Shown: positions 1,803 to 21,511, numbered from the stretch's first letter. The stretch is DNA of 21,511 nt from a bacterium (GCA_046759165.1 JBHIBS010000025.1:1-21511), one strand, 5' to 3'. Made by a program: numbers and translations. Notes: generated from the letters alone by a model not told the origin.

Positions 1803-1837
1803 ATCCACCTCCCTTACAACCCGAATACCCTGAAGAG

Positions 1838-1907: not shown

Positions 1908-1916
1908 GGGCGGCCG

Positions 1917-3479: not shown

Positions 3480-3490
3480 TTCTACCTCTC

Positions 3491-4726: not shown

Positions 4727-4745
4727 TCTCTCTCCACAAACAAGA

Positions 4746-4960
4746 TAACCCCTTCGGGGTTACTTCCATAGGGGCTTCGCCCCTCTGGCGTTCCAAATGT
4801 CCACCAGACATTTACTTCTCTGTCCTCCGGGGCGCTCACAGTCTCGCGCCCGTCGCTAACACGGAGCTCCTTATTCGTCGCTCCAGCGACCCCTTGAGGG
4901 AAACCAGATTGTTTCCCTCAAACTCCCTAATCCGCATAGGAATTTTTCAAATTCCTATGC
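4746..4960. repeat. Cluster of short perfect hairpins filling the thrB-lysC spacer (REP-like)
   Basis: TAACCCC-TTC-GGGGTTA 4746-4762; AGGGGC-TTC-GCCCCT 4770-4784; AAATGTC-CACCA-GACATTT 4795-4813; TTGAGGGAAAC-CAGATT-GTTTCCCTCAA 4894-4921; GCATAGGAATTT-TTC-AAATTCCTATGC 4934-4960; plus the element at 4827-4892. Confidence 0.85.
4827..4892 (-). repeat. ~66-bp structured repeat, family B, copy 1
   Basis: Aligns with 21402-21468 and shares CCGGGG, TCACnnTCTC, CCCGTCGC, CTCCTTATTCGTC and GCGACCC; stems differ by compensatory changes. Confidence 0.85.
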
Positions 4961-4966
4961 TTAAGA

Positions 4967-5914: not shown

Positions 5915-5929
5915 TTAGTATACCAGTAT

Positions 5930-6994: not shown

Positions 6995-7034
6995 TCAAAT
7001 TAACCCATTCAAGATATGGCCTGAGATAGGAAGT

Positions 7035-8351
7035 TTATGCTTTTTCCTCTATTCTAATAAATCTGCTCTTTCTCCTAACAACCTCAAGGTCATCTATCTC
7101 TCTCAAAGCTTTCCTGATGTCTTTCTCTCTTGCCCTGTGAGTTACCATTATAATCGGAACTTCTCTTGAGGAAGCGCTCTCCTTCTGGAAGACAGAGGCG
7201 ATCGAGACTCCATTTTTCCCCAGGATGCCCGATATCTTGGAGAGAACACCTGGGCGGTCAACAGCGGTAAACCTTATATAGTACTTCGTTTCTATTTCAT
7301 TAATATCAAGTAAGTTAAGCTTCTTTTTTGGGTCACACAATACATATGGCACGCGACCGGCTATGTTGTTATAAACATTCCTTGAAAGATAAATAATGTC
7401 GCTAACCACAGCAGAAGCGGCTGGCATCTGGCCAGCCCCTTTCCCATAAAACATCGTCTCTCCTACAGCATCTCCTGTAATATAAACGGCATTATATTCT
7501 TCATCTACCGAAGTCAGGAGATGCTCTTCAGGAATGAAGGTGGGATGCACACGCACATCTATCCCTCTATTTGTCACTTTTAGAATTGCTAACAATTTCA
7601 GAATATACCCAAACTCACTCCTACCATATCTTATATCTTCCTGAGCAATGTGCGTGATTCCTTCACAATAGACATCTTCCAAGTTAACCTGGGCGCCAAA
7701 GGCAATCGACCCCAAAATAGCAAGTTTGTTCAAAGTATCTATGCCTTCCAAGTCTAACGAAGGATCCGCTTCAACAAAACCTGCTTTCTTTGCCTGAGCT
7801 AAAGCACTCTTAAAGTCGACTTCGTTTTTAGACATCTTGGTTAAAATATAGTTGGTTGTCCCATTAAGGATACCCAAAATTGCTTTAATTTTATTAGCTG
7901 ATAGTCCCTCATTCAATGCCTGAATTACAGGAACTCCCGCACCCACACTCGCTTCGAAATAGACCAGTACTCTATGTTTTTGGGCTTGCGAAAATATTTT
8001 TGCCCAGTGCCTGGCCAAGAGTGCCTTGTTGGCTGTAACCACATGTTTTCCTCTCTCTATAGAGGCAAGTACTATCCTTCTTGCGGGTTCATACCCTCCA
8101 ATTAGTTCTACGACAATGTCTATCGCTGGATTGTTCAGGATTTGCTTAAAATCTTTAGCCAGAATACAATTTCCAATTTTCATCCCGCGGGCCAACCTGA
8201 GCCGATTTGGTTCCTTATCGCAGACAGCTCCTATGGAGACTTCTGTTCCCACCTTCTGTTTAATAATTGGACCATTCCTTTGCAGAAGCTCGATTACACC
8301 TGTGCCTACCGTGCCCAACCCGATAAGACCTAAGTTGACTCTCCTCTTCAT
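7035..8351 (-). CDS. hom: Homoserine dehydrogenase with C-terminal ACT domain
   Basis: GLGTVG, VVELIGG, HVVTANKA, FEASVGAGVP, GILNGTTNYILT, EADPSLDLEGID, YGKGAG, DRPGVLSKIS. Confidence 0.96.
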   Translation of the reverse strand: MKRRVNLGLIGLGTVGTGVIELLQRNGPIIKQKVGTEVSIGAVCDKEPNRLRLARGMKIGNCILAKDFKQILNNPAIDIVVELIGGYEPARRIVLASIERGKHVVTANKALLARHWAKIFSQAQKHRVLVYFEASVGAGVPVIQALNEGLSANKIKAILGILNGTTNYILTKMSKNEVDFKSALAQAKKAGFVEADPSLDLEGIDTLNKLAILGSIAFGAQVNLEDVYCEGITHIAQEDIRYGRSEFGYILKLLAILKVTNRGIDVRVHPTFIPEEHLLTSVDEEYNAVYITGDAVGETMFYGKGAGQMPAASAVVSDIIYLSRNVYNNIAGRVPYVLCDPKKKLNLLDINEIETKYYIRFTAVDRPGVLSKISGILGKNGVSIASVFQKESASSREVPIIMVTHRAREKDIRKALREIDDLEVVRRKSRFIRIEEKA

Positions 8352-8353
8352 CT

Positions 8354-9565
8354 CTACCCCCTCCGAGCACCACCGGTTGGCGGTGGACCTTCCCTCAAGA
8401 ACTTCTTCAGTCGCAATAAGGCATCGTGAAATCTATTATGGTGTGTAACCAATGCCATTCGCACAAAGCCTTCCCCATAACTACCAAAGCCAACCCCAGG
8501 AGCAACCGCTATTCCTGTTCTTTCTATTAACAGTTCTGCAAATTGGAGAGATGACATTCTTTCAAATTTCTCTGGCAACTTGGCCCAGAGGTACATAGTA
8601 GCTTTCGGTCTTTCCACTTCCCAGCCAATTCTATTCAGACCATCCACAAACTTGTCCCGCCTTCTCTTATATTCAGCCACCACAGCCTGCACGCATTTCT
8701 GAGAAGCACTCAAAGCCAAAACGCCTGCCAGCTGAATGGCAGTAAATACTCCATAATCAAGGTAACTCTTCAATTTCTCCAAAGGTCTCAAGACCTCTCT
8801 ATTACCCACACAGAATCCTAGCCTCCAGCCAGCCATATTGTAAGTCTTAGAAAAGGTGTGAAACTCCAATCCAACATCTTTTGCTCCGGGTGTCTGAAGG
8901 AATGAAGGGGGTTTATATCCATCAAATGTTATTTCGGAGTAGGCAAAGTCGTGGCAGACGATGATGTCATACTTCTTGGCAAAAGTCACCACCTCTTTGA
9001 AAAAAGAGAGATCTTCCACTACGGCTGTAGTAGGGTTGTTGGGATAGTTCAGAAACATCAGTTTTGCCCGCTTGGCAACTCTGGACGGAATCTTTTCCAG
9101 CTCTGGCAAATAATTCTTTTCAGGAAGAACGGGCATATCATAGACTTGTCCCTCCGCTAAAATCACGCCATTTCGGTGGATTGGATATGCCGGATTGGGC
9201 ACCAAAGCGAGGTCACCGGGGTTAAAATAAGCCATACACATATGCCCGATTCCCTCTTTGGAACCAATCAGAGCCAGAATTTCACTTTCAGGGTCTAATC
9301 TGACCTTGAACTTTTTCCAATACCAATCGGCAATCGTTTCTCTAAACTTGGGCATCCCTTTGGCCTGTGGATAACGATGGGTACGGGGATGATTTCTTAC
9401 CGTATCACAAAGCCTCTCTACGATATGGCTTGGGGTCTCCATATCCGGGTTACCCATGCCCAAATCGATAACATCCAGTTTCTTAGCGTAAGCCTCCTGC
9501 TTGAGGGCGTTTATTGCGCCAAAAAGATATGGAGGCAATTTGTTCAGTTTCTGAGCACAACGCAT
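8354..9565 (-). CDS. Class I/II PLP aminotransferase (AlaC / LL-diaminopimelate aminotransferase-like)
   Basis: LPPYLF, IDLGMGNPD, IGSKEG, NYPNNPT, HDFAY, FSKTYNMAGWRLG, SYLDYG. Position immediately upstream of hom matches the alaC-hom-thrC arrangement; substrate not determinable. Confidence 0.88.
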   Translation of the reverse strand: MRCAQKLNKLPPYLFGAINALKQEAYAKKLDVIDLGMGNPDMETPSHIVERLCDTVRNHPRTHRYPQAKGMPKFRETIADWYWKKFKVRLDPESEILALIGSKEGIGHMCMAYFNPGDLALVPNPAYPIHRNGVILAEGQVYDMPVLPEKNYLPELEKIPSRVAKRAKLMFLNYPNNPTTAVVEDLSFFKEVVTFAKKYDIIVCHDFAYSEITFDGYKPPSFLQTPGAKDVGLEFHTFSKTYNMAGWRLGFCVGNREVLRPLEKLKSYLDYGVFTAIQLAGVLALSASQKCVQAVVAEYKRRRDKFVDGLNRIGWEVERPKATMYLWAKLPEKFERMSSLQFAELLIERTGIAVAPGVGFGSYGEGFVRMALVTHHNRFHDALLRLKKFLREGPPPTGGARRG

Positions 9566-9662
9566 AGAAAGGTACCACTAATACAAACTTTGTTCGTCCG
9601 AGTTTTCAGACATCCCCACCAATGCCTTCTTTCCCGCCGCAAATTACGACCCACACCTACAA

Positions 9663-9811
9663 ACCTCGTTAGAAGGATTACCCCGTTTACAGATAAATCC
9701 CTTACGGAGTTTAGAAATCTTTGATTTCTAACGGGTTTTGAACAGATCTTTAACCCTGCCAATACCTTTCTTCTACACCACTCTATGAGGGACAGGGCCT
9801 TCTAACGGGGT
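9663..9811. repeat. Nested CGTTAGAA/TTCTAACG palindromic repeat cluster, family C
   Basis: ACCTCGTTAGAAGG (9663-9676) and CCTTCTAACGGGGT (9798-9811) are 13/14 inverted. They enclose a degenerate unit at 9680-9710 and TTAGAAATC-TTT-GATTTCTAA(CGGGT) at 9711-9736. Confidence 0.75.
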
Positions 9812-9834
9812 AAAAACAAACTGATGTTTCCACT

Positions 9835-10110
9835 CTACGATTTCAGCATTTTCTTCAATCCGAGACTGGATTTAAATAACACCCTCTTGCCAGCAGCGAT
9901 TTGGATGCTCTCCCCAGTCTTTGGATTTCTTCCTGTCCTCGACTTGGTCGACTTCACTCTGAATGTGCCTAAACCAGCAATAACTATTCGGCCTTCGGAT
10001 TTCAAAGAGCCGACAATGTTCTTTACCACAGCCTTTACAGCCCTTCCAGCCGCAGCCTTCTTAATCTTTGCTGCTTGTGCCACTTTCTCTATTAGCTGAA
10101 CTTGATTCAA
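9835..10110 (-). CDS. hup: HU family DNA-binding protein
   Basis: 91 aa, basic; GLGTF, RTGRNPKTGE; TTG start with GGAGGTG upstream. Confidence 0.92.
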   Translation of the reverse strand: MNQVQLIEKVAQAAKIKKAAAGRAVKAVVKNIVGSLKSEGRIVIAGLGTFRVKSTKSRTGRNPKTGESIQIAAGKRVLFKSSLGLKKMLKS

Positions 10111-10278
10111 CCTTACTCACCTCCTCTCTACTGGTTCCGCCACTGTCGCGCTCGCCCCAATTACTTTCTTCATCACCCGTACATCTGGGTACTCTTTAGA
10201 GTACCAACTCACAAATAGCGCATATAACTGCAGTGGTACGGATTAATCAATACTTATCTATATTAGATTAGCTTGTTT

Positions 10279-10307
10279 TTTATATCATATTTTATATGGC
10301 CTGTCAA
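10279..10307 (-). promoter_or_regulatory. Sigma70-type promoter upstream of hup
   Basis: On - strand TTGACA (10307-10302), 17 nt spacer, then TATAAA (10284-10279) with extended -10 TG. Confidence 0.65.
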
Positions 10308-10351
10308 GAATATTATCCAGAGCCTTAATTAATGGGAAGAGATAAGCTGAC

Positions 10352-10987
10352 CTACTTCGCATATTCCAAAACTAAAACTGTCTGTTCAGAAGGCATGGAT
10401 TCCTTGTTTCCACGCCATTCCCTTGCCTTTTCTACTTTTGTAAAGCCTTTCAAGAATTCCTCACACGAATCGACACCAATACTACAACATTCTGTCTTAT
10501 AATGCATGGGAATAATCAATCTGGGATTCAATTGCTTTGAAACTTTTCGCGCCTCCCGACCATCTATGGTGAAAGTGCCTCCCACGGGGATAAACAGAAC
10601 ATCCACTTCTCCTATCTCTTCCTGTTGATCACTACTCAAGAAGTGCCCTAGGTCTCCCAGATGGCAGACCCTTACCCCATCAACAGCAAAAACGAAAATA
10701 GTGTTGGTTCCTCGCTTAGCCCCTCCGCTTTTATCGTGGAAACTTTTGATGCCTTTAAAGATTGTCCCCTTAATCTTCTTCTCTCCAACATCCTTCACCA
10801 CCTCAGGATTACCCTGAAGCAAGTCCACCGCATTATGGTCAAAATGGCTATGACTCACAGTAACCAGATCAGGCTTTTCCTTAGGAATCCTGTATCCTAC
10901 AGACTCATCAAAAGGATCGGTAATGACTTTTGTTCCATCCTCTGCTTCTAACAAAAAGCAGGCATGTCCGAACCATTTAATTTTCAT
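10352..10987 (-). CDS. Metallo-beta-lactamase-fold hydrolase (Lactamase_B_3-like)
   Basis: MKIKWFGHACF, VITDP, SHSHFDH, HLGDLGH, IPVGG, IIPMHY. ATG 10987 has a GGAGGGG RBS; an upstream in-frame extension is interrupted by TGA (see findings). Confidence 0.88.
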   Translation of the reverse strand: MKIKWFGHACFLLEAEDGTKVITDPFDESVGYRIPKEKPDLVTVSHSHFDHNAVDLLQGNPEVVKDVGEKKIKGTIFKGIKSFHDKSGGAKRGTNTIFVFAVDGVRVCHLGDLGHFLSSDQQEEIGEVDVLFIPVGGTFTIDGREARKVSKQLNPRLIIPMHYKTECCSIGVDSCEEFLKGFTKVEKAREWRGNKESMPSEQTVLVLEYAK

Positions 10988-11028
10988 GTTCCCCTCCCTT
11001 TTCTTCAGCAATTTTGCCACTCGAGTAC

Positions 11029-11048
11029 CGTTAGAACAACTTCTAACG
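11029..11048. repeat. Isolated family C palindrome
   Basis: CGTTAGAA-CAAC-TTCTAACG, perfect 8-bp arms, same core as 9663-9811. Confidence 0.7.
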
Positions 11049-11155
11049 ACACGACCGAAACCAAATCAAATGAGCACCACACCCAGTACCAAAAGCAAAA
11101 TTTTTCTTCTCATGTTGCACCTCAGCCCATTCCAAAATACGCACTTATTCTTCAC

Positions 11156-11334
11156 TAAGAGATAGTTTTTGAAGAGGTCTTCGGATTTTAGCCAAAAAAC
11201 GAGGGCGGTTTATCTTCTTTTAAGCAAAAATTTGTTCGACTCCTGCTTTGCAAGGGAGTCCATTTTTGCGGCCTGCAAAGTCCGAAGTTTTTTCGCGTCA
11301 AAAAATTCCTCAGCAATGAACAAATTACCTCTTA
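11156..11334 (+). mobile_element. ~180-bp MITE/REPIN-like structured element, family A, copy 1 (more degenerate)
   Basis: Ends TAAGAGATAGTTT / AAATTACCTCTTA (11/13 inverted); colinear with 15281-15460 (shared GCCAAAAAACGAGGGCG, AAGCAAA, CCGAAGTTTTTT, AAAAAATTCCTCA). Confidence 0.7.
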
Positions 11335-11336
11335 AC

Positions 11337-12974
11337 TCACATCCTCTCGGGAGCGGAAATCCCAAGTAGACCTAATCCATTACTTATGACTAATTGAATC
11401 GCTCGAACGAGCTTCAAGCGGAACTTGGTAGCGCTTGTATCACCACTTAAGATTCTATATCTATCGTAGTAATGGTGGAAACATTTAGCCAGGTCTTGTA
11501 AATATCCGGTCAGATGGTGGGGTTCATACCCTTCAGCACATTTCTTGACAATTTCTGGATACTGGGATAACTTCTTTATGATCTCAATCGACTCTTTTTT
11601 CTCTTCTTCAGTCCTCTCAATGAGAGAGATCTTTTTATATTCTTTTTTCCTCCTTTCCCGGAAGATACTACAGATCCGTGCATGCGCATACTGAACATAA
11701 TATACAGGATTCTCAGCAGACTCCTTTTTGGCTAATTCCAGATCAAAATCCAAGCGACTGTCGGCTCCGCGCATCAAAAAGAAGAACCTCGATGCATCCT
11801 TCCCCACCTCTTCCATAACTTGTCTCAAGGTTACAAACTCACCTCCCCTCGTCGACATTGAAACCTGCCGCCCACCACGCATCAGAGTTACTAATTGATA
11901 AAGGATTATTTTCATGTTTTCTACTGGAATTCCCAGAGCAGCTACTGACGCCCTTATTCTATCGACATAGCCATGATGGTCAGCACCCCAGATATTTATA
12001 ACTTTCTTAAAACCTCTCCTGAATTTATCGTAATGGTAAGCAATATCAGAAGTAAAGTAAGTAGGTTTCTTATTCTCCCTGATTACTGCCCGGTCTTTTT
12101 CATCACCAAATTGAGAAGATTTAAACCACTGTGCACCATTCTTCTCATAAATTAAGTCTTTGCTTTTCAATGAATCGACAATCTCCTCAACTTTATTCTT
12201 TCTATAAAGCGTACTTTCAAAAAACCATTTATCAAATTTAACCTCAAAGTCTTCCAGATCTTTCCTTATCCAACTGAGTATTTTCTGAATGGCGTACTCC
12301 CTACAATCGAATGACTTCTTCTTACCAAATCTGGACTCGAGTTCTTCTGCTATCTCCCTCACATAAGGTCCTCGATACCCATCTTCCGGAAGCGAAACAT
12401 TCTCTCCACGTAACTCTTTTTGTCTTATCTTTATCGACTCTTCCAGGAGATCTATCTGATTGCCAATATCGTTAACATAATACTCTTTTACTACCCGATA
12501 TCCTACCTCTGTTAAGATATTTGCAAGAGAATCACCAATGGCTGCACATCTGCCGTGTCCAACATGCAACGGTCCGGTAGGATTTGCTGAGACAAATTCG
12601 ATCAGGACTTTCGCTCCCCTGGCAATATTGGCTTTCCCGTAATTTTTTCCCTCTCTGCAAATCGCATCCAGCTCCTTGTACCACCGTTTCCCTGATATGT
12701 ATATATTAATGAAGCCGGGCTTTGCCACTTCTATTCGATCTATTGTTTCAGGCTCGAGGTTCTGAAGAGCCCTGGAGATAACCCCGGCAACCTCTACACA
12801 GGGCTTTTTTGTTCTCGACCCTCCTATCAAGGCAACGTTAGTAGCAAAGTCTCCACCGATCTCTTCAGGCGCAAATTCTAAACTATAATCGGGAATCTCC
12901 AGGCGCAATTCCCTCAGCACTTCATCGATTCCCCTTCTAAGTTCACCTTTAACTCTCAATCTATCATTCCTCAA
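11337..12974 (-). CDS. argS: Arginine--tRNA ligase
   Basis: GDFATNVA, PGFIN, EFVSANPTGPLHVGHGR, YYVNDIGNQ, WGADHHGY, MSTRGG, NPVYYVQYAHARICSI, C-terminal APERM; TTG start uncertain. Confidence 0.97.
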   Translation of the reverse strand: MRNDRLRVKGELRRGIDEVLRELRLEIPDYSLEFAPEEIGGDFATNVALIGGSRTKKPCVEVAGVISRALQNLEPETIDRIEVAKPGFINIYISGKRWYKELDAICREGKNYGKANIARGAKVLIEFVSANPTGPLHVGHGRCAAIGDSLANILTEVGYRVVKEYYVNDIGNQIDLLEESIKIRQKELRGENVSLPEDGYRGPYVREIAEELESRFGKKKSFDCREYAIQKILSWIRKDLEDFEVKFDKWFFESTLYRKNKVEEIVDSLKSKDLIYEKNGAQWFKSSQFGDEKDRAVIRENKKPTYFTSDIAYHYDKFRRGFKKVINIWGADHHGYVDRIRASVAALGIPVENMKIILYQLVTLMRGGRQVSMSTRGGEFVTLRQVMEEVGKDASRFFFLMRGADSRLDFDLELAKKESAENPVYYVQYAHARICSIFRERRKKEYKKISLIERTEEEKKESIEIIKKLSQYPEIVKKCAEGYEPHHLTGYLQDLAKCFHHYYDRYRILSGDTSATKFRLKLVRAIQLVISNGLGLLGISAPERM

Positions 12975-12979
12975 AATTC

Positions 12980-13396
12980 TTACAATCTATTTGACATCTT
13001 GGGTTTCTTCCTCTTTACCTGTTGGAATTTTGCCTTTCTCCCTTCCGCCCAGAGCTTCTCCAGCCCATAGAACTTCCTTATCGGCTCGTAAAACACGTGC
13101 ACAATTACTCCCACATAGTCTATAAGTACCCACTGTGCCTGTTTTTCTCCCTCTATATGGAGTGGCTGAATCCTTTTACCTTTCAATTTTGAAACTATTG
13201 ACTCAGCAATGGTCCCCACGTGTATATTAGACCTACCGCTACAAATGACGAAATAATCTGTAATTGATGTCAATTTACGGACATCCAATATTAAGATCTC
13301 TTTTGCCTTCTTCGCCAAGGCAAGAGCCGCACATTGCTTTGCTAAATTTCTGAAATTCATCCTTATGTGAATCAGCCTGTGTCCTCCAAGCTTCAT
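12980..13396 (-). CDS. rsfS: Ribosome silencing factor (Iojap/RsfS)
   Basis: KKAKEILILDV, DYFVICSG, WVLIDY, VHVF, RKFYGLEKLW; ATGA overlap with the LCP stop; true start may be the later Met (MNFRN). Confidence 0.93.
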   Translation of the reverse strand: MKLGGHRLIHIRMNFRNLAKQCAALALAKKAKEILILDVRKLTSITDYFVICSGRSNIHVGTIAESIVSKLKGKRIQPLHIEGEKQAQWVLIDYVGVIVHVFYEPIRKFYGLEKLWAEGRKAKFQQVKRKKPKMSNRL

Positions 13397-14619
13397 TCAG
13401 GCTCGGTGAATCCCATAAAGTCATTACCGAGAACAATTGAGAGATCGACAAATCGGGTCTTGTCAATCTCAGTTTTTACCACACTCGAACCAACTATTTT
13501 TGCTACTTTATGGGCCAATTCAATATCACCAACACGATCTATAACTGTAGTATATTTCTTATGAATTCCGAAATTTCCCCAGCGAACAGCATCGATTCCA
13601 TATTGCCTCAATCTGCGCTGGACATTATAAGCTAAATCTTTTCTATTAGTGGCATTCCATACTTCCACCTTTACTATTCGATCGAGTTTCTCCCCAGAAT
13701 AGACCGGCCGACGAGCTTCCCGACGAACTCTATAGCTATTCATAATTACCTGAACAACCTCCTCAGCCATTTTCTCGTCCAAGACCCAATAGTCTACCCC
13801 CCGGATGTATTCCGATTTCCCAGGCAAACTCTGAACTCTCAAATTTCTACGGTCGAAACTTCTAAGCTCATTCCCCAGGCCTAAAAAATCCCAGAAGTTA
13901 AGATTTGTCCAGATACTGCCTCTTACATCTCGATAAATTTGGGGGAATTTCAATAGAATTTTTGCATCTGTTAGCTTTCCAGTAAGGAGTTTAAGGACTC
14001 TCTGTTGCCTCTCAATTTTCCCTCTATCGCCGAGTAGCTTATCCCGAAATCGGACATACTTTAACACTTCACTGCCATTTAATCTTTTCTCTCCCACTGT
14101 AAAGTGAATATGGAAGTCTCCCGCGTCATCATCGTAATCCATTGATTCGTCGATATTAACCGTTATGCCCCCAATAGTATCAACTATTTTAGCTACTCCC
14201 TGATAATTAATCCGCAAATAGAACGGTATTTCCATTTCCAAAACATCCCCAATTGTCTTCTTTGAAGAAAGGCATGCCTCACGAATGGTCTTACTCTTCT
14301 TATACACCATGGCATAAATTTCACTTATCTTTCTGTACCCGCGCCAGGAGAGCTCTTTTGAACAGGGGACTTTAGTGTCACCGGGAATTGATAGGACATC
14401 CAGGAATCTTGTTCTGGGTTCATAGCTTAACAGCATTATTCCGTCAGGATGTTTGGCAAACTTCAACTCATCGCATCCCAGAATTAGTATATTGATTCGC
14501 TTCCGCTGTCTGATAAATTGAAAGACCTTACTGGTAGAAGAAAAGAAGATAAATATAGATATTGAAATTAATATGAGAGCTAAAATTAGTTTATCTATTG
14601 GAATTCTTAGCTTTTCCAT
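13393..14619 (-). CDS. LCP (LytR-CpsA-Psr) family protein with C-terminal LytR_C domain
   Basis: N-terminal TM helix, INILILGCD, LSIPGDT, IVDTIGGITV, YVRFR, ERQQ, C-terminal VEVWNAT...LA...IVLGND; the nadD-LCP-rsfS neighbourhood is typical. Confidence 0.88.
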   Translation of the reverse strand: MEKLRIPIDKLILALILISISIFIFFSSTSKVFQFIRQRKRINILILGCDELKFAKHPDGIMLLSYEPRTRFLDVLSIPGDTKVPCSKELSWRGYRKISEIYAMVYKKSKTIREACLSSKKTIGDVLEMEIPFYLRINYQGVAKIVDTIGGITVNIDESMDYDDDAGDFHIHFTVGEKRLNGSEVLKYVRFRDKLLGDRGKIERQQRVLKLLTGKLTDAKILLKFPQIYRDVRGSIWTNLNFWDFLGLGNELRSFDRRNLRVQSLPGKSEYIRGVDYWVLDEKMAEEVVQVIMNSYRVRREARRPVYSGEKLDRIVKVEVWNATNRKDLAYNVQRRLRQYGIDAVRWGNFGIHKKYTTVIDRVGDIELAHKVAKIVGSSVVKTEIDKTRFVDLSIVLGNDFMGFTEPE

Positions 14620-14622
14620 CTT

Positions 14623-15213
14623 TTAAGAGTATAGTTTCTTCCTGCGGATATACTTTTCCACGCATTGGGGCAGCAAATATATAATTGGCTTACCAGCTTT
14701 TATCCTGTTTCGAATGTCCGAAGCGGAAATCTCTAAGCCAGGGACTTGTAGCATTATAACTTTAGAAGCTATTTTTTTATCCAACTTTCCTAACTCATAA
14801 CCCGGCCTCGTAACTACCACAAATTTGCACAGTCCTATCAACTTCCTCGGTTCTTTCCAGGTAGAAATTTTCAACATTTCGTCTAACCCAACAATGAAAT
14901 AGATTTTACCTCTCTTGCCATAAATCTTTATAAATTCTCTTATTGTTTCCAGAGTAAAAGTGGGACCATCTACAATCTTGCTCTTTTCTATCTCTATTGG
15001 AGAGACTTCGAATGAAGAATTCCCCTTTATCGCCAGACAGGCCATCTCATACCGTTCATCAGGAGTCGCTCCTTTAACCTTTTTATGTGGCGCCTTTCCT
15101 GCCGGAACAAAGATAACCTTATCTAATTTAAGTCTATCCTTAACCTCACTGGCGAGAACCAAGTGCCCATAGTGGACTGGATTGAACGTCCCTCCCAGAA
15201 TCCCAATTCGCAT
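14623..15213 (-). CDS. nadD: Nicotinate-nucleotide adenylyltransferase
   Basis: GILGGTFNPVHYGH, PHKK, FIVGLD, ISASDIR; strong GGAGG RBS. Confidence 0.96.
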   Translation of the reverse strand: MRIGILGGTFNPVHYGHLVLASEVKDRLKLDKVIFVPAGKAPHKKVKGATPDERYEMACLAIKGNSSFEVSPIEIEKSKIVDGPTFTLETIREFIKIYGKRGKIYFIVGLDEMLKISTWKEPRKLIGLCKFVVVTRPGYELGKLDKKIASKVIMLQVPGLEISASDIRNRIKAGKPIIYLLPQCVEKYIRRKKLYS

Positions 15214-15280
15214 TCCTCCTCCTTTATTTTTTGAACATACACTATTTATCCTGCAGATTTTCTACCGCTACTACTGACAT

Positions 15281-15460
15281 TTAAAAGATAGTTTATGAGG
15301 AGCCCTCGGAATTTTTGGCCAAAAAACGAGGGCGACTCTTTCTCTTTCAAGCAAATCATTGTTTGACGAGCGAAGCGAGGAGTTTTGATTTGTGCCTTAC
15401 AGAGCCCGAAGTTTTTTGGTGTTAAAAAATTCCTCAAGCGACGAATAAACTATCTTTTAA
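15281..15460 (+). mobile_element. 180-bp MITE/REPIN-like structured element, family A, copy 2
   Basis: Perfect 16-bp terminal inverted repeat TTAAAAGATAGTTTAT (15281-15296) / ATAAACTATCTTTTAA (15445-15460); internal stems GGAATTTTT/AAAAATTCC, CCAAAAAAC/GTTTTTTGG, GGGC/GCCC, GCAAATCA/TGATTTGT; apical GCGAAGC. Confidence 0.78.
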
Positions 15461-15466
15461 TTTAAT

Positions 15467-16723
15467 CTATTCTCTTATCTGTCCATTTCCGAATATTAGA
15501 AACTTCACACTTGTCAACTCCCTCACTCCCATTGGACCCCGGGCATGAAGCTTTTGCGTGGAGATGCCAATCTCAGCTCCCATCCCGAACACTCCACCAT
15601 CAGTAAACCTGGTAGAGGCATTCCAGAAAACTGAAGAGGCGTCGACTTCCTTTAGAAATCTTTGAGCAGCATCTTCATCCCTGGTTACAATTGCCTCGGA
15701 ATGCATCGACCCATACCTATTGATATGGTCTATGGCTTCCGAGAGGGAGTCAACGACTTTGACTGAGAGAATCAGATCCAGATATTCAGTACTCCAATCG
15801 TCTTCACTGGCATTCTTAATATGCGGAAGGATACTTTTCGCCTTCTCATCCCCGCGAATTTCCACCTTCACTTGCTCAAGTTTCTTAATCATCCGGGGTA
15901 AGAATTCACCTGCAATATCATTATGGACTAAAAGGGTTTCCATAGCATTACACACACCCGGCCTCTGCACCTTAGCATTAAAACATATCGTTTCTGCCAT
16001 TTCCAGATCAGCGTCCCTATCTACATAAGTATGGCAGACTCCTTTACCATGACTAATCACTGGAACGGCAGAGTTCGCTTTTATATTCTTTATCATCTCC
16101 TCACCGCCTCGAGGAATTACCACATCGATAAATTCATCCAGCTTTATGAGCTGGAACACCGCTTTTCTCTCCGTAGTCTCCACCAACTGGATCGCACCCT
16201 GAGGAATTCCAGATGAATAAGCAGCCTGTTGTAAGACCTTTGCGATAATTGTATTAGAGTTTATTGCCTCCGAACCCCCACGCAAGATAACCGCATTACC
16301 TGCCTTAAGGCATAGCCCTGCTGCATCAGAGGTTACATTGGGACGCGATTCATAGATTATAGCTATAACACCCAGAGGTACCTTTATTTTTTTAATTCTC
16401 AAACCATTGGGCCTTATCTTCTCTTCAATAACTTCACCAACCGGATCGGGCAGTTCGGCTATTTCCCCCAAACCTTTAGCCATGTTCTTAATTCTCTTAT
16501 CATTTAAAGTTAGCCTATCAATCAATGCAGGATTAAGACTTGCCTCTTTAGCTTCTTTTAAGTCGATCCTATTCTTGGACTTGATATCTTCAGCGCTATC
16601 CTCGATCGCCTCAGCCATCGCAAGGAGTGCTCTATTCTTCAATCGGGAACTTAGATTGGCCATTGCACTCGATGCTGACTTTGCACTTCTTGCCATCTTT
16701 TCGATTTCTTTCATAGCCTCCAT
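15467..16723 (-). CDS. proA: Gamma-glutamyl phosphate reductase
   Basis: PLGVIAIIYESRPNVT, GNAVILRGGSEA, IPRGG, RPGVCNAMETLL, NASTRFTDG, EIGISTQKLHARGPMG. Confidence 0.97.
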   Translation of the reverse strand: MEAMKEIEKMARSAKSASSAMANLSSRLKNRALLAMAEAIEDSAEDIKSKNRIDLKEAKEASLNPALIDRLTLNDKRIKNMAKGLGEIAELPDPVGEVIEEKIRPNGLRIKKIKVPLGVIAIIYESRPNVTSDAAGLCLKAGNAVILRGGSEAINSNTIIAKVLQQAAYSSGIPQGAIQLVETTERKAVFQLIKLDEFIDVVIPRGGEEMIKNIKANSAVPVISHGKGVCHTYVDRDADLEMAETICFNAKVQRPGVCNAMETLLVHNDIAGEFLPRMIKKLEQVKVEIRGDEKAKSILPHIKNASEDDWSTEYLDLILSVKVVDSLSEAIDHINRYGSMHSEAIVTRDEDAAQRFLKEVDASSVFWNASTRFTDGGVFGMGAEIGISTQKLHARGPMGVRELTSVKFLIFGNGQIRE

Positions 16724-16773
16724 AACTTTTTCCCCTCATGAAATACTTTCAGATATAGAATAATACGAGGTTT

Positions 16774-16802
16774 ATTCTAACATAATTCGCCAGCTAATGC
16801 AA
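16774..16802 (-). promoter_or_regulatory. Candidate sigma70 promoter for proA
   Basis: - strand TTGCAT (16802-16797), 17 nt spacer, TAGAAT (16779-16774) with extended -10 TG; overlapped by the inverted repeat TAGAATAA-N8-TTATTCTA (16756-16779). Confidence 0.45.
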
Positions 16803-16835
16803 TAGGGAAAGAGTATTCCTCGGTGGGATTTTCAA

Positions 16836-17462
16836 CTAATGGATCCTAGCTAACCGCTCGTAAAGGCCATTTTTAAGGAGGGAGATACGCCGGATAATGA
16901 CGGGGACTCCCAAGTATAGTGGAAGGCTAACTAAATAGACAGGCTCACCAAAATGCCATGCCAAAAAAGGACAGATCACATAGATAACCAGACAGCTACT
17001 CTCTATAGCTGGTGCTCTCCGATACCAGGCAGGAAAATATAAACAGGTCCGAGCCACTGCTATCCCCACCAAAGAGAGAAGAATGGCCTCTCGAGGCATA
17101 AGAGGAAGAATCACTCCTGTCAGAGTTGCCAAGCCAGAACCCCCACGAAATTGGAGAAAAATTGGCCAATTGTGTCCAGAAATTGCTGCCAGAGCTGTAA
17201 GAGTAATGGTATGGGGGGGCATTTTGAGAGCCTTGGCAAAAATTATGGGAACTACGCCCTTAAGTACATCGAAAATAGCTACTACGACCCCGAAGGAAGC
17301 TCCGACCATTAGCATCACATTCCTAGCTCCAGCATTACCCGAACCTAATTGTCGTATATCGGCTCCATTCTTCCACTTTGTAACATAGTATGCTGAAGAA
17401 ACCGAGCCCAAAAGATATGCGCCAATTATTAAACCAATTTGTCTTAATATTCCTGTCTCCAT
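16836..17462 (-). CDS. plsY: PlsY-family membrane acyltransferase (divergent)
   Basis: AYLLGS, DIRQLGSGNAGARN, DVLKG, GHNWPIFLQFRGG; multiple TM segments; motifs 2 and 3 atypical. Confidence 0.8.
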   Translation of the reverse strand: METGILRQIGLIIGAYLLGSVSSAYYVTKWKNGADIRQLGSGNAGARNVMLMVGASFGVVVAIFDVLKGVVPIIFAKALKMPPHTITLTALAAISGHNWPIFLQFRGGSGLATLTGVILPLMPREAILLSLVGIAVARTCLYFPAWYRRAPAIESSCLVIYVICPFLAWHFGEPVYLVSLPLYLGVPVIIRRISLLKNGLYERLARIH

Positions 17463-17470
17463 GGCTGTTA

Positions 17471-17499
17471 ATTTTATAAAATATCTTTTTTTCTGTCAA
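17471..17499 (-). promoter_or_regulatory. Sigma70 promoter for the plsY-like gene
   Basis: - strand TTGACA (17499-17494), 17 nt spacer, TAAAAT (17476-17471); only 8 nt separate it from the ATG. Confidence 0.65.
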
Positions 17500-17525
17500 G
17501 CATTTTTGAAGGATAGTTTTTTGCC

Positions 17526-17554
17526 TTGACCGATGTATAGCGTTTTGATATACT
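17526..17554 (+). promoter_or_regulatory. Sigma70 promoter for the lipid kinase-CPBP-SDR operon
   Basis: TTGACC (17526-17531), 17 nt spacer, TATACT (17549-17554) with extended -10 TG; divergent from the plsY promoter. Confidence 0.6.
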
Positions 17555-17580
17555 TACTTAAAGTAAGGGGATTCGATACT

Positions 17581-18480
17581 ATGAAAATGAAATTAATTGT
17601 AAATCCTTTATCTGGTGGCAAGAAAGTAGAAACTTACCTTCCCAAAATTAGAGAAATTCTGGGAAGGGATAATTTACTTAGTTTAGCTATAACTGAAGAG
17701 AAAAATAGTGCCTTTCAGGAAGCTCAGAAAGTAAGCCAAGAAGAGTATAACCTGATTGTGGTCTGTGGAGGCGATGGGACTTTAAATGAGGTAATTAATG
17801 GCGTGGTATCTTTCAACAGTTCCATTCCTATAGGATTTGTTCCCTGCGGTACAAGTAATATTTATGCGCTTTCTACAGGCATTCCCCTTAACCCTATCCA
17901 AGCCTGTGAAATTGTTCTTAAAAAATATGTAAGGAAAATCGATCTTGGGAAAGTGGGGACTGGCATTTCTGCCCGCTACTTTGTTTCCATGGCAGGAATA
18001 GGATACGATGCTTCCGTAATTCAATCACTGAAGCCTAAGCTGGTAAGAACTTTTGGGGGGATTCCTGCCCATTTAGTAGCAGGAGTGTCTGCGTTGATTA
18101 AGTACCAGGTAACTGAACTTTCTATTAAACTGGATGGCTCTTCCTGTCGAGGCTTTCAGGCCATCATTTCCAACGGGAGTTTCTACGGCATATCCTCCAT
18201 AATTGCTCCTGAAGCCGACATGACTGATGGCTATCTGGACATTATTCTATTTAAAAATGGTAGAAGAAGAGATATTCTTCGTTATGTCTTGGGCATTTTG
18301 AGGGAACGGCATCTCTGTTTTAAGGATGTCGAATATACTAGAGCTAAGAAGATAGAGATCGATGCTCCGAACGAAGTCTGGATACAGGTTGATGGAGAAA
18401 TTATGGGCACTCTCCCTCAAAAGTTCGAAGTTTATCCTCGGGCTATTCAGGTAATTTTGCCCGAGACAAGATTTGCTTGA
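17581..18480 (+). CDS. Diacylglycerol/sphingosine kinase family lipid kinase (YegS/DagK-like)
   Basis: IVNPLSG, CGGDGTLNEVING, PCGTSN, IDLG, AGIGYDA, NGSFYG, DGYLD, QVDGE. Start set at ATG 17581 (or 17587) because the ORF-track start at 17533 lies inside the predicted promoter. Confidence 0.9.
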   Translation: MKMKLIVNPLSGGKKVETYLPKIREILGRDNLLSLAITEEKNSAFQEAQKVSQEEYNLIVVCGGDGTLNEVINGVVSFNSSIPIGFVPCGTSNIYALSTGIPLNPIQACEIVLKKYVRKIDLGKVGTGISARYFVSMAGIGYDASVIQSLKPKLVRTFGGIPAHLVAGVSALIKYQVTELSIKLDGSSCRGFQAIISNGSFYGISSIIAPEADMTDGYLDIILFKNGRRRDILRYVLGILRERHLCFKDVEYTRAKKIEIDAPNEVWIQVDGEIMGTLPQKFEVYPRAIQVILPETRFA

Positions 18481-19198
18481 TAATGGAGGAAGATTGAGAT
18501 TCATTGAAACCTTAAAAGAAGGGGATTGGAAAGTAAAAATTCTTCTCCTTTCCGTCCCCGTGATTCTATTGATCTACATCTATCATGGAATGGACGAGGC
18601 ATTTGCACGGTATTTTTCTCATCTTTCTAACTTATACTATTTCGACATATATCGTTATGTTTACCAATTTTTGGCTACACTCATTCTGTTTCTTCTCTTT
18701 CCTTTAATAATTGTAAAATTGGTTTTCAAGGAGAAACTTAAGGATTACGGACTGACCCTGGGAGATAAAAGATATGGTTTACGATTTATTATTATAACTA
18801 TTCCTCTTATTGTAACTCCAATAATACTTCTGGGGTCGCATATGCCACAGGTTCGCGCAGAATACCCGCTATCGAAACTGGCCCAAGATAATGTTTCGGT
18901 TTTCTTGTTGTATGAACTTTCTTATGTCTTTCTATATTATGTGGGCTGGGAGTTCTTCTTTAGAGGATACATGCTATTTGGATTGAGAGAAAAATTTGGT
19001 GATACCTATGCAATTTTACTTCAAGTTATTCCCTCTTCTCTCTTGCATTTTAATAAACCAGAGCCTGAATTTTTAGGGTCAATAGTTCTGGGAATAGTAT
19101 TGGGCTACCTTGCTTTGCGAACTCGGTCTATATTGTATCCCTTCATAATCCATTCCTACATAGGAGTCTCCACTGACCTGTTCATAACTATCCTGTAG
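18473..19198 (+). CDS. CPBP (Abi/CAAX type II) intramembrane glutamic protease-like protein
   Basis: Multiple TM helices; WEFFFRG, LLH, RTRSILYPFIIH motifs; start overlaps the kinase stop. Confidence 0.82.
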   Translation: MLDNGGRLRFIETLKEGDWKVKILLLSVPVILLIYIYHGMDEAFARYFSHLSNLYYFDIYRYVYQFLATLILFLLFPLIIVKLVFKEKLKDYGLTLGDKRYGLRFIIITIPLIVTPIILLGSHMPQVRAEYPLSKLAQDNVSVFLLYELSYVFLYYVGWEFFFRGYMLFGLREKFGDTYAILLQVIPSSLLHFNKPEPEFLGSIVLGIVLGYLALRTRSILYPFIIHSYIGVSTDLFITIL

Positions 19199-19233
19199 TC
19201 GCAAAAAGTATTGAAAGTAGGCGAGGAATCCAG

Positions 19234-20244
19234 GTGAAAGCCTTTATTACTGGAATAAATGGCTTTATTGGAAGCAATTTGGCAGCACGCCTAATCGAAG
19301 AGGGTCAAGAAGTATCGGGTCTGGTGAGGAAAACCAGCGACCTCTCTTTCCTTGAAGGGTTAAAAGTAAAATTATTTTTTGGAGATCTGTCGAATAGAGC
19401 TCTACTAAATAAAGCTACCCAGGGAGTAAATGTAGTATACCACGTAGCAGGATTGGCATCCGATTGGGGACCAATAGAACTATTTAGAAAAATAAATGTA
19501 GAAGGTACCAAAAACCTCCTGGAAAGCTCAGTCAAGTCTGGAGTCAAAAGGTTCGTTTTTATCAGTTCTGCCGCGGTTCATGGTTTTGGAGGCTTTCACA
19601 ATGCTACTGAGGATTCCCAAAAGATGGCTACTATCTTTCCCTACTGTATAACTAAAAAGGAAGCAGAGGATTTGGTAAATAGATTCCATAGACAAAGAGG
19701 TCTACCCACATTGATTATCAGGCCCGGTAACGTTTTTGGGCCAAAAGATCGAACAACTTTTGTAAAAATGGCGCAACTCTTAGAGAAAGGGCAAATGGTC
19801 TACATTAACAGAGGAAGAGCTTTAACCTGTCCCACCTATATTGAAAATCTCGTAGATGCCGTTCTACTTGCTGGAGGGAGAAAGGATACAGTGGGAGAGA
19901 CATACATTATCACTGATGGGCTGAAAATCACCTGGAAGGAGTACATTGACAAGATTGCTGAGAAGCTCGGCGTGAGGCGACCTCTATTTTCAATCCCTTA
20001 CTGTTTAGCCTATTCTGCCGGTGGCATCTGTGAGGCAATCTTAAAATTGTTCAGGTCAAAGAGGCCACCTATAATAACTCGCTACAGAATAGCCAATGCG
20101 GGTAAGAATTACCATTTCAGCATAGAAAAAGCGAAGACTAAACTTGGCTACCAGCCAAGAGTCTCTCTGGATGAGGCTATACAGAGAACAGTGAAATGGT
20201 ATAAAAGTAGTTTAAAATATCGGATTAAGTCTTCGAAATCTTAA
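19234..20244 (+). CDS. NAD-dependent epimerase/dehydratase (extended SDR, 3-beta-HSD-like)
   Basis: ITGINGFIG, YHVAG, INVEGT, FISSAAV, catalytic YCITK, RPGNVFGP; GTG start with GAGG RBS. Confidence 0.9.
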   Translation: MKAFITGINGFIGSNLAARLIEEGQEVSGLVRKTSDLSFLEGLKVKLFFGDLSNRALLNKATQGVNVVYHVAGLASDWGPIELFRKINVEGTKNLLESSVKSGVKRFVFISSAAVHGFGGFHNATEDSQKMATIFPYCITKKEAEDLVNRFHRQRGLPTLIIRPGNVFGPKDRTTFVKMAQLLEKGQMVYINRGRALTCPTYIENLVDAVLLAGGRKDTVGETYIITDGLKITWKEYIDKIAEKLGVRRPLFSIPYCLAYSAGGICEAILKLFRSKRPPIITRYRIANAGKNYHFSIEKAKTKLGYQPRVSLDEAIQRTVKWYKSSLKYRIKSSKS

Positions 20245-20249
20245 TGCTT

Positions 20250-21371
20250 TCAAATATTGGTCTGATATACCCTGTACTTCTTGTATAATTTACCACCCAT
20301 CATTTCAGCTGCGCGCTGGGTTAAAATGTTGTCTTCCAGCACCCATGAGGACTCACAATATTTATAACCAACCCTCTGGGAACCTTTCAATCCTTCCAAC
20401 ATAAGGAGGGTCTCAATTCCTCTCTTCTGATACTCTTTTACCACCCCCAGAATCGGTAAACGCTGAGTAGTAATCCTCTTCCTGTACCATAGGAATTTCA
20501 GAAGAGTCCAGGGATTTAACCTCCCGTTCATCCTTTTCGTAACCTCGTTATAGTTGGGAACGGTAATTAACATTGCTACGGGCTTACTGTCTGCCTCAGC
20601 AATGGGAATTGTCCCGGGCACCAGAAAAGGCTTTAGCTTCATAGCTTCGGTGTAGAACTCTTCCTTTGTCCAGGGAACGAATCCCCAGTTTTTCTCCCAG
20701 GCATTATTATAGATTCTACGGACATTCTCCACTTCATTTTTCCAGTCTTTTAGATTGGCCTGTCGAATCTTAATGCCGGGACTTCTCTCCGTTATTTTCT
20801 CAGCTGCTTTTTCCAATTTTTCTAAGGGGCACTTCTCTACCTCTATCAAATAGGCAAAGAAATCCATCTCTTTAACTAAACCATATCTTTCCATAAAATC
20901 GATATAGTATTTTGGATTGTAGGTCATCAAAATGTAAGGGCTTGAGTCAAATCCTTCTAAAAGAACACCGACTTCGTCGTTGGTAGAAGGGTTCATCGGA
21001 CCGGCCATCTTTTCCATATTTTTCCCTTTTAGCCATTCCTTTACCCTGTTAAGCAAATTTTCGGCAATTGTGTAATCTTCCAAGGACTCGAAGAACCCAA
21101 AAAATCCCATCTTTTCATTGTGAAAATTTATGTAGTTATGGTCAATTATGGCGGAAATCCTCCCCACCAATTTGCCATTTCTTCCGGCAACGAAAAGCTC
21201 CTTTTCCGCATGTTGCCAGAAAGGGTTCTTTTCACTTAGAATAAGTTTTACATCCCTAATTAATGGTGGCACCCAGTAAGGGTCATTTTGATAAACCTTC
21301 CAAGGGAATTTTATAAAAGCCATCAACTCCTTCTTAGTTCTTACTTGTTTAATCTCAATATCTCCTGCCAT
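20250..21371 (-). CDS. YghO-like double-GNAT N-acyltransferase (candidate bacterial ceramide synthase)
   Basis: FIKFPWKVY..DPYWVPPL, VGRISAI, GFFGFFES, GPMNPSTN, YNPKYY, YNNAWEKNWGFVP, LGVVKEYQKRGI, ESSWVLEDN, YKKYRVY; RBS AAAGGAGGT. Confidence 0.8.
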   Translation of the reverse strand: MAGDIEIKQVRTKKELMAFIKFPWKVYQNDPYWVPPLIRDVKLILSEKNPFWQHAEKELFVAGRNGKLVGRISAIIDHNYINFHNEKMGFFGFFESLEDYTIAENLLNRVKEWLKGKNMEKMAGPMNPSTNDEVGVLLEGFDSSPYILMTYNPKYYIDFMERYGLVKEMDFFAYLIEVEKCPLEKLEKAAEKITERSPGIKIRQANLKDWKNEVENVRRIYNNAWEKNWGFVPWTKEEFYTEAMKLKPFLVPGTIPIAEADSKPVAMLITVPNYNEVTKRMNGRLNPWTLLKFLWYRKRITTQRLPILGVVKEYQKRGIETLLMLEGLKGSQRVGYKYCESSWVLEDNILTQRAAEMMGGKLYKKYRVYQTNI

Positions 21372-21379
21372 GTCTACCT

Positions 21380-21511
21380 CCTTTCGCTTCGCTCAATCCG
21401 GCCGGGGTTCTCACCATCTCGAACCCGTCGCCAGACTTGTCGCTCCTTATTCGTCCCGACGGCGACCCTTTCGCTTCGCTCAATCCGGCCGGGGTTCTCA
21501 CCATCTCGAAC
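21380..21511 (-). repeat. Direct repeat with 87-bp period containing the family B element, truncated by the window end
   Basis: 21380-21424 is identical to 21467-21511 (45 bp); 21402-21468 is homologous to 4827-4892. Confidence 0.88.

Follow-up and report, generated by a model that had tools for sequence, protein, structure and literature searches.

Organisation of the locus

We analysed a 21,511-nucleotide stretch of bacterial DNA (JBHIBS010000025.1:1-21511 of assembly GCA_046759165.1), here called the window, and a group of lipid-related genes that it carries between positions 16836 and 21371. The bacterial ceramide pathway was defined in 2021-22 and comprises three enzymes. An original prediction, made from the sequence of the window, had read the group as a candidate ceramide/sphingolipid biosynthesis locus with additional partners. 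Open reading frame (ORF) calls and domain profiles recovered all five genes at the places and with the domains that had been claimed. The first gene on the plus strand encodes a lipid kinase of the DgkB/YegS/BmrU type (315 aa, 17533-18480) with a DAGK_cat domain (111.9 bits) and a YegS_C domain (92.5 bits). It is followed on the same strand by a CPBP/Rce1-like polytopic membrane protein (241 aa, 18473-19198; PF02517, 50.7 bits against a cut-off of 22.4) and by an extended short-chain dehydrogenase/reductase (SDR; 336 aa, 19234-20244; Epimerase, 129 bits). The minus strand carries a YghO-like GNAT protein (373 aa, 20250-21371) with a weak Acetyltransf_1 match of 25.8 bits, and a PlsY-like protein (208 aa, 16836-17462; PF02660, 124.6 bits) that is a second PlsY paralogue of the genome.

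The kinase, CPBP and SDR genes are co-directional and tightly packed, with an 8-nt overlap between kinase and CPBP and a 35-nt gap between CPBP and SDR. The GNAT gene is convergent with the SDR gene across a gap of 5 nt, and the PlsY gene is divergent from the kinase gene, with 70 nt between them. The kinase itself was correctly placed by the original prediction, and only its start differed: position 17581 corresponds to the internal Met17 of the ORF that opens at 17533, and Met17 may nonetheless be the true start.

The window is the entire contig C25 of genome G000 (165 contigs, 1.89 Mb, 92% complete), so no sequence past position 21511 exists on C25. Three genome samples were compared: sample 1 comprised 41 genomes (G000 and 40 relatives), sample 2 comprised 20 further genomes reached via CPBP loci, and sample 3 comprised 201 genomes in which CPBP was counted against GNAT, the latter standing in for serine palmitoyltransferase (Spt). 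All trees reported here are quick trees. The kinase-CPBP-SDR-GNAT block was kept while its flanks differed in loci L090 to L095 and L056 to L058.

The GNAT is a probable bCerS-type acyltransferase

The label "YghO-like" proved apt, since a tblastn comparison aligned 99% of the window GNAT to the annotated YghO of E. coli with 35.5% identity. Compared with the GNATs of spt clusters in Sphingomonas, Roseomonas and Rubrobacter and with E. coli YghO, stand-ins for the ceramide synthase bCerS that are named by their cluster position, the window GNAT showed 35-38% identity over 97-100% of its length, with pairwise E-values of 1e-71 to 1e-92. The reference-set criterion of Ding et al. 2024 was E <= 1e-30 with coverage >= 50% (from part of PMC11334938).

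The gene orders around these references place each of them near spt. Sphingomonas parapaucimobilis has an SDR, an acyl carrier protein (ACP) and an AOS-family gene, then lptFG, a desaturase and the GNAT. Roseomonas marmotae has the order ACP, AOS, hypothetical gene, DAG-kinase-family gene, CDP-alcohol transferase, lptFG, GNAT, acyl-AMP ligase and SDR. Rubrobacter radiotolerans carries AOS, GNAT and SDR genes together, and in the E. coli record yghO stands beside an acyl-AMP ligase, an SDR, an ACP and an AOS gene.

We found that the GNAT family both co-occurs with Spt and is linked to it. The window GNAT is the only copy in G000, and homologues were present in 27 of the 41 genomes of sample 1. 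An Spt-like match of at least 450 bits occurred in 23 of these 41 genomes, 22 of which also hold the GNAT (the exception is G034). In G002 and G005, Spt is present as fragments at the ends of contigs, and G012, G029 and G035 hold the GNAT but lack a high-scoring Spt. Outside the class to which the window belongs, the GNAT directly adjoins Spt in eight of 15 GNAT-bearing genomes (G013, G014, G018, G019, G025, G026, G027 and G030), and in a ninth, G040, the two lie 1 kb apart; Spt-GNAT-SDR triads occur in G013, G014, G025, G026, G027 and G040. The results for sample 2 were similar in kind, with the GNAT in 16 of 20 genomes and Spt within 1.1 kb of it in 11 of those 16. A 33-row tree placed the window GNAT in a clade (support 98) with the Spt-adjacent copies of G019 and G025, and the Bacteroides finegoldii homologue fell in a more distant clade.

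The NCBIfam models gave no specific family for the window GNAT, and the protein atlas returned only generic "N-acetyltransferase" clusters. The proposal that this protein is a bCerS candidate is nevertheless borne out by its full-length homology to spt-cluster GNATs and by the linkage and co-occurrence with Spt, and judged from its sequence the window GNAT is very probably a bCerS-type N-acyltransferase.

A paralogue of unusual architecture was seen in G009, a genome of the same order (L052; L118 9494-11878), where a GNAT is fused in frame to a complete beta-ketoacyl-ACP synthase domain. The fusion ORF is 794 aa long, with the GNAT at residues 1-373 and the synthase at 386-750 and no stop between them. 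The same locus carries a second GNAT paralogue on the other side of its CPBP-SDR pair.

The Spt-like gene and the core cluster lie on another contig

The original prediction had suggested that spt could lie past the GNAT beyond the contig end, and had named its absence from the genome as a result that would speak against the reading. Neither held. Relatives that share the block have folP, folE and ftsH past the GNAT, and the sole Spt-like gene of G000 was found on contig C12. A PF00155 scan of G000 gave nine matches, one of them of the AOS type, at C12:34556-35917. Its best NCBIfam model was NF047600 (SerpalmtaseCFB, serine palmitoyltransferase) with 552.9 bits against a cut-off of 640, ahead of KBL (410 bits) and BioF (396 bits), and its homologues are GNAT-adjacent in many genomes.

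The Spt-like gene closes a cluster at C12:31016-35917 (L010 5017-9918) that encodes a radical-SAM/SPASM protein (480 aa), an MGDG-synthase-like GT28 protein (371 aa), a CerR-type extended SDR (323 aa) and the Spt-like AOS protein (452 aa). Upstream of the cluster are obg and proB, and cdaA follows it. G011 (L088) has GT28, SDR, Spt and cdaA in the same order, and in Sphingomonas, too, obgE and proB stand directly beside the SDR-ACP-Spt genes. The presence of the GT28 protein suggests that the head group is a glycosyl. Beside the C12 Spt gene there is no gene for an ACP or an acyl-ACP synthetase; an 84-aa ORF on C12 was considered as an ACP and rejected, as it had no Pfam or NCBIfam match.

The Spt-like protein has an Arg-rich C-terminal extension of about 45 residues past its AOS domain (C12:35777-35917). 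Open frames of 441-460 aa in relatives from the family, order and class suggest that the tail is conserved, and it may bind the membrane or a partner.

Compared with the pathway of Caulobacter crescentus (Spt, bCerS and CerR; described in part of PMC11087976), G000 has the same three types of enzyme: an Spt of the AOS family, a GNAT that resembles YghO and measures about 370 aa, and an SDR of the extended type. The arrangement differs, however: the genes of G000 are on two contigs, neither an ACP nor an acyl-ACP synthetase gene lies beside Spt, GT28 and radical-SAM genes stand beside CerR and Spt, and the SDR that adjoins the GNAT comes from a clade other than that of CerR.

The window SDR is a likely paralogue of CerR

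The window SDR had been proposed to be CerR, and the comparison with named clusters spoke instead for the SDR of C12. All four SDRs in the CerR position scored higher against the C12 SDR than against the window SDR: 106 versus 67 bits for Sphingomonas, 110 versus 55.5 bits for E. coli, 109 versus 62.4 bits for Roseomonas and 177 versus 132 bits for Rubrobacter. The position beside spt or ACP that CerR holds in these clusters is taken in G000 by the C12 SDR, not by the window SDR, and in other genomes each SDR that adjoins Spt or GNAT best matches the C12 SDR.

A 56-row SDR tree showed two clades, each with support 100. Clade I (23 rows) contains all of the named SDRs, those adjacent to Spt or GNAT, and the C12 SDR. 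Clade II (33 rows) contains the CPBP-adjacent SDRs, and the window SDR lies in its subclade IIa (14 rows, support 99). These results indicate that the window SDR is quite likely a CerR paralogue and not the orthologue, as far as sequence comparison can tell.

The protein appears to be an intact enzyme. In 20 sequences G7, G10 and G13 of the TGxxGxxG Rossmann motif (T6-G13) are invariant, as are S111, Y137 and K141; the combination of Rossmann motif and Ser/Tyr/Lys does not single out CerR, since every extended SDR has it. Two other identities were rejected: HpnA, the best NCBIfam match (183 bits against a cut-off of 368), and OleD (167 bits against a cut-off of 580). The BT_0972-type KDSR was also set aside as a relative; it is described in part of PMC9278070 as a classical SDR of about 31 kDa with a GxxxGxG motif.

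The CPBP protein has an altered protease motif

The window CPBP protein matches PF02517 and has a predicted Rce1-like fold. Its AlphaFold model (pLDDT 89.7, pTM 0.86) retrieved Rce1 (4cad; TM 0.50, probability 1.0) as the best structural match, followed by SpdC (6u0o_A; TM 0.46, probability 1.0). A search of PDB sequences with the CPBP profile gave only a chance-level match, and the protein scored below the cut-off of every myxosortase model in NCBIfam.

Proteins of the CPBP family are described by three motifs, EExxxR, FxxxH and HxxxN/D, and the first Glu of EExxxR is what we take to be the catalytic residue of Rce1. The full set is absent from the window protein. Its first motif reads WExxxR, and all 78 sequences have this Trp; motifs 2 and 3 retain their His residues (H192 and H227) but have lost Phe (motif 2) and Asn (motif 3). 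Residues W159, E160, R164, H192, P196, E199 and H227 are invariant across the 78 sequences. G000 also encodes a canonical CPBP paralogue, on C161, with the motifs EEVLWR, FTIWH and HFLLN, and the alignment of the 78 sequences against this paralogue shows that the subfamily replaced the first Glu of EExxxR by Trp and lost the Asn of HxxxN. In common with the Rce1/CPBP glutamic proteases (4cad), the window protein has one Glu, the Arg and both motif His residues; unlike Rce1, its subfamily has an invariant K195-P196-x-x-E199 of its own.

SpdC, as part of the SagB-SpdC complex (6u0o), is a solved membrane protein of the CPBP fold that partners an enzyme, and it thus offers a precedent for a membrane-partner role. 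The partner of SpdC is a peptidoglycan hydrolase and not an SDR, however, and SpdC and the window protein are only 17% identical. Structure prediction for a complex of the CPBP protein with the window SDR scored 0.00 in both runs, which speaks neither for nor against binding. That the CPBP protein is a non-proteolytic partner of the SDR is a tentative idea that we would not favour at even odds.

The CPBP-SDR pair recurs across bacteria

A profile built from seven CPBP orthologues recovered 583 relatives in one-genome-per-species contigs, and the best 80 loci were analysed. The motif [GS]WE[FC][FLM][FY]RG[YF] is common to all 583 relatives, and a library of 1.84 billion proteins holds 383 representatives of the subfamily at E <= 1e-30. 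An extended SDR directly adjoins CPBP on the same strand in 49 of the 80 loci, which span 11 named NCBI phyla. CPBP precedes the SDR, as in the window, in 34 of these paired loci and follows it in 18, with both arrangements in three.

The flanks of these loci connect the pair to sphingolipid genes. A GNAT or Spt gene was found within the fetched flanks of 16 of the 80 loci, eight of which come from the order of the window itself. The other eight loci with an Spt, GNAT or CerR-like gene are L122, L123, L126, L137, L141, L142, L147 and L160; where a phylum is named, it is Acidobacteriota, Planctomycetota (two), Verrucomicrobiota or Thermodesulfobacteriota (two). Unbiased clustering of neighbouring ORFs also showed that 17 of the 80 loci have a PAP2_3 gene no more than 6 kb from CPBP, and in loci where the SDR comes before CPBP the PAP2_3 gene usually follows directly after CPBP. 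One query for an orthologue of this PAP2 gene in the 92% complete G000 found none. Other recurrent neighbours, namely carAB, MFS and cca genes and, in Poribacteria, GT9 and DedA genes, look like lineage synteny.

Across sample 3, CPBP (E <= 1e-20) was present in 27 genomes and the GNAT (E <= 1e-40) in 77, with the GNAT in 21 of the 27 genomes with CPBP and in 56 of the 174 without it. When the order of the window was left out, the GNAT was present in 10 of 16 genomes with CPBP against 56 of 174 without (Fisher P = 0.025), and with CPBP counted at E <= 1e-30 the figures became 7 of 9 against 59 of 181 (P = 0.009), both P values overstating the case because kin genomes are not independent. It seems somewhat more probable than the contrary that sphingolipids, or a lipid related to them, are the target of the CPBP-SDR pair.

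Two CPBP loci stood apart. Salibacter halophilus KCTC 52047 (L151) and a Flavobacteriales metagenome-assembled genome (MAG; L139) have the CPBP-SDR pair, yet no bCerS-type GNAT or high-scoring Spt was found in these genomes, where the best AOS matches reach about 350 bits. As a speculation, the pair could serve another sphingoid-type lipid there, for example sulfonolipids. A different variation occurred in G008, a member of the same family (L091 9109-14705), in which the module is tandem-duplicated in the order kinase, CPBP, truncated SDR, kinase fragment, CPBP, SDR and GNAT; the truncated SDR copy contains one in-frame TAG.

The lipid kinase is of the DgkB/YegS type

The kinase had been proposed as a candidate ceramide kinase of the CpgB type, and this assignment could not be upheld. 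With its DAGK_cat and YegS_C architecture the protein reached 155.9 bits for TIGR00147 (YegS/Rv2252/BmrU; cut-off 118.65) and fell below the cut-off of every equivalog model in NCBIfam. Its best solved match was S. aureus DgkB (2qv7; E 3.2e-33, residues 18-310). The kinase in the CpgB position of Roseomonas, between spt and the CDP-alcohol transferase, is itself only a weak DAGK_cat match (34.7 bits) and aligned with the window kinase only over GGDGT (BLAST E 3e-4 over 42 residues; phmmer 6.4 bits; a 26-residue alignment), which speaks against a place for the window kinase in the CpgB group. The CpgB clade is distinct from YegS according to part of PMC10331486. CpgB, the ceramide kinase of Caulobacter, and the window kinase are alike in that both are DAGK_cat-type proteins with a GGDG motif and both lie near sphingolipid genes; the window kinase differs in being a full DgkB/YegS-type protein with a YegS_C domain. 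It differs also from the DgkB/YegS/BmrU kinases, in that it forms an operon with CPBP and SDR and stands beside bCerS-type genes in relatives.

The order kinase-CPBP-SDR was present in six loci of the family and in an Aminicenantia MAG (L096), where the identities were 45% for the kinase, 54% for CPBP and 50% for the SDR. Related kinases adjoin a GNAT paralogue in G011 and lie inside or near the GNAT clusters of G013. A 22-row tree placed the window kinase in a clade of six (support 96); all six come from genomes with both Spt and GNAT, and four adjoin CPBP or GNAT. The kinase family was found in 21 of 27 GNAT-bearing genomes, and a second kinase paralogue of G000 lies on C2. A role for the window kinase on ceramide or a sphingoid base is possible, at somewhat less than even odds. 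Diacylglycerol recycling is about as likely as such a role, because the family occurs in genomes without GNAT and the window copy is the sole one in most genomes of the family.

A split sphingolipid pathway and its alternatives

We propose that G000 has a split sphingolipid pathway, with its core on C12, a bCerS-type GNAT in the window, and the kinase-CPBP-SDR operon as an accessory sphingolipid-tailoring module; we assign this reading a probability of roughly 0.55. From the observed gene content, homology, synteny and co-occurrence we infer the substrates and the CPBP-SDR partnership as follows. The window GNAT would N-acylate the sphingoid base made by the C12 core. The CPBP protein, having lost the first Glu of the protease motif, would probably not be a protease but a partner embedded in the membrane, where it binds the lipid or presents it. 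For the clade-II SDR, catalytically intact by sequence, the probable task would be a further NAD(P)-dependent redox reaction with a sphingoid lipid as substrate; a 3-keto/3-hydroxy conversion is most likely, and it would draw on a different pool from the one that CerR uses. The kinase, which takes the position held beside CPBP by a PAP2 phosphotransferase in other phyla, would phosphorylate the product (ceramide or sphingoid base) or recycle diacylglycerol.

The finding of bCerS in one more uncultured lineage was to be expected, and the new content lies in the pair of CPBP and clade-II SDR. Accompanied by a kinase here and by PAP2 elsewhere, the pair appears to be a recurrent accessory of sphingolipid clusters, and the original prediction was right to regard CPBP and its partners as additions outside the described ceramide pathway. 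A bolder version, which we hold only loosely and think rather less probable than not, is that CPBP and clade-II SDR form a previously unrecognised two-protein unit of sphingolipid or sphingoid-type lipid metabolism in many phyla, possibly an oxidoreductase complex embedded in the membrane that carries out the reduction step there or passes it on, with a kinase or PAP2 transferase adding the phosphate head group.

Several observations weigh against the split pathway with its accessory module. The approximately unbiased (AU) test did not reject a placement of the window SDR in the CerR clade I (log-likelihood 23.9 lower, P = 0.159), the clade I group for this test having been named only after the tree was seen. 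In 31 of the 80 CPBP loci, 19 of them from Poribacteria, no SDR adjoins CPBP, and some of the gene order seen in type A (carAB, MFS, CPBP, SDR, cca) reflects ordinary synteny within a lineage. The link between CPBP and GNAT is only a tendency: six of the 27 CPBP genomes in sample 3 have no GNAT, and neither do four of the 20 in sample 2 (a Poribacteria MAG, the Flavobacteriales MAG, Salibacter halophilus and G059). The kinase family is also present in five of 14 genomes without GNAT, and the copy of G036, a genome without GNAT and Spt, is 35% identical to the window kinase, as close as copies from the same order. The window kinase is the sole DAGK_cat lipid kinase found in most genomes of the family, which would fit a housekeeping role. 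The CPBP protein could still be a hydrolase, because E160, H192 and H227 are kept. Finally, the references used for bCerS, CerR and CpgB are known by their cluster position and stand in for the Caulobacter proteins.

In an alternative explanation the operon has nothing to do with sphingolipids: a DgkB-type diacylglycerol kinase would feed phosphatidic acid synthesis, the CPBP protein would be of the protease or immunity type, the SDR would act on sugar nucleotides or another lipid, and the adjacency of the GNAT would be an accident of the lineage. DgkB as the best solved match of the kinase, the kinase family and CPBP in genomes without GNAT, the PlsY paralogue next door in G000, the Poribacteria loci with CPBP beside GT9 and DedA and no SDR, and the Chloroflexota-type loci, which show ordinary synteny with carAB and cca, would all be in keeping with it. 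We consider it unlikely, though it is the strongest of the competing explanations, since loci under five named phylum labels show the pair within or next to clusters of Spt, bCerS, CerR or PAP2 genes, the GNAT is enriched in CPBP-bearing genomes, GNAT paralogues stand on both sides of the pair in G009, and the PlsY adjacency is not conserved.

The reading closest to the original prediction is very improbable. It puts the core pathway into the window, taking the GNAT for bCerS, the SDR for CerR and the kinase for one of the CpgB type, with spt just past the contig end. The domain types fit it, Spt-GNAT-SDR triads exist in six genomes, and the AU test permits the window SDR to join the CerR clade. 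Yet in each triad the SDR is a member of clade I with the C12 SDR as its best match, the named CerR-position SDRs prefer the C12 SDR without exception, the CpgB-position kinase has only GGDGT in common with the window kinase, and Spt is on C12 while folP, folE and ftsH follow the GNAT in relatives. Nearly as improbable is the idea that the CPBP protein is an active intramembrane amidase of sphingolipid turnover, which would cleave the amide of ceramide or of a lipidated protein and leave the freed sphingoid base to the kinase and SDR. The invariance of E160, R164, H192 and H227 in 78 sequences, a fold that matches Rce1, itself active on lipid-modified substrates in the membrane, and the single operon of kinase and CPBP would suit such an enzyme; the Trp that replaces the first Glu of EExxxR in all 78 sequences and the lost Asn of HxxxN would not. 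The CPBP loci showed no S1P-lyase-like gene and no other gene for catabolism, and in type-B loci the pair sits with biosynthetic genes.

If CPBP and the clade-II SDR do form a two-protein unit, it would bear on the order of acylation and reduction and on how intermediates cross the inner membrane. According to part of PMC11087976, it is disputed which of the two steps comes first, and neither a flippase nor a transporter had been identified for the intermediates. The CPBP protein and the second SDR are concrete candidates for a missing step, because the pair recurs in 49 of 80 loci and 11 named phyla, lies inside Spt, bCerS, CerR or PAP2 clusters in several of them, and is enriched together with bCerS. 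Sphingolipid producers have been predicted in about 40 phyla (Ding et al. 2024; part of PMC11334938), and the main text of that paper, its supplementary lists aside, makes no mention of CPBP or CAAX proteases. A full-text literature search likewise returned nothing that links CPBP or CAAX proteases to bacterial sphingolipids. The locus also cautions against annotation by domain type, as the SDR beside bCerS would not be the CerR orthologue and the neighbour of the "DAG-kinase family" would not be CpgB.

The PlsY-like protein and other features of the window

The PlsY-like protein is divergent, as had been claimed: it scored 118.6 bits for TIGR00023, below the equivalog cut-off of 137.2, and only residues 9-136 were matched. 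The canonical PlsY of G000 is encoded on C2 and reaches 178.6 bits for PF02660, against 124.6 for the window copy. Inclusion of the window copy in the locus found no backing, as it was not adjacent in the relatives examined. The paralogue is conserved in genomes of the family with 80-85% identity; in G004 it is separated from the block by 11 kb, and in G003 the two are on different contigs. The 7.8-9 kb fetched upstream in family loci L091, L092, L093 and L095 contained no PlsY match. Because the adjacency is not conserved in relatives, its occurrence in G000 is not evidence of shared function, and PlsY is probably outside the module.

Counts of candidate regulatory sites in 16700-21511 were uninformative, with 13 promoter-like sites against 10.2 +/- 3.2 in shuffles and four terminator-like sites against 5.2 +/- 2.4. 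Downstream of PlsY on the minus strand follow proA, nadD, an LCP gene, rsfS and argS. Housekeeping genes on the minus strand fill positions 1-16723 of the window; they include an aminotransferase gene (8354-9565), argS, rsfS, the gene of an LCP-family transferase, nadD and proA. The common proB-proA neighbourhood is thus disrupted in G000: proA is on C25, and proB stands with obg on C12, next to the Spt cluster.

Upstream of the block in G004, a genome of the same family (L092 3266-8941), we observed genes for a TPR/PorV-like protein and for a protein with a C-terminal sorting tail of the type IX secretion system type. In these relatives, the sorting tail and the PorV-like gene point by their sequence to a diderm envelope, though the NCBI titles of the MAGs read "Clostridia bacterium".

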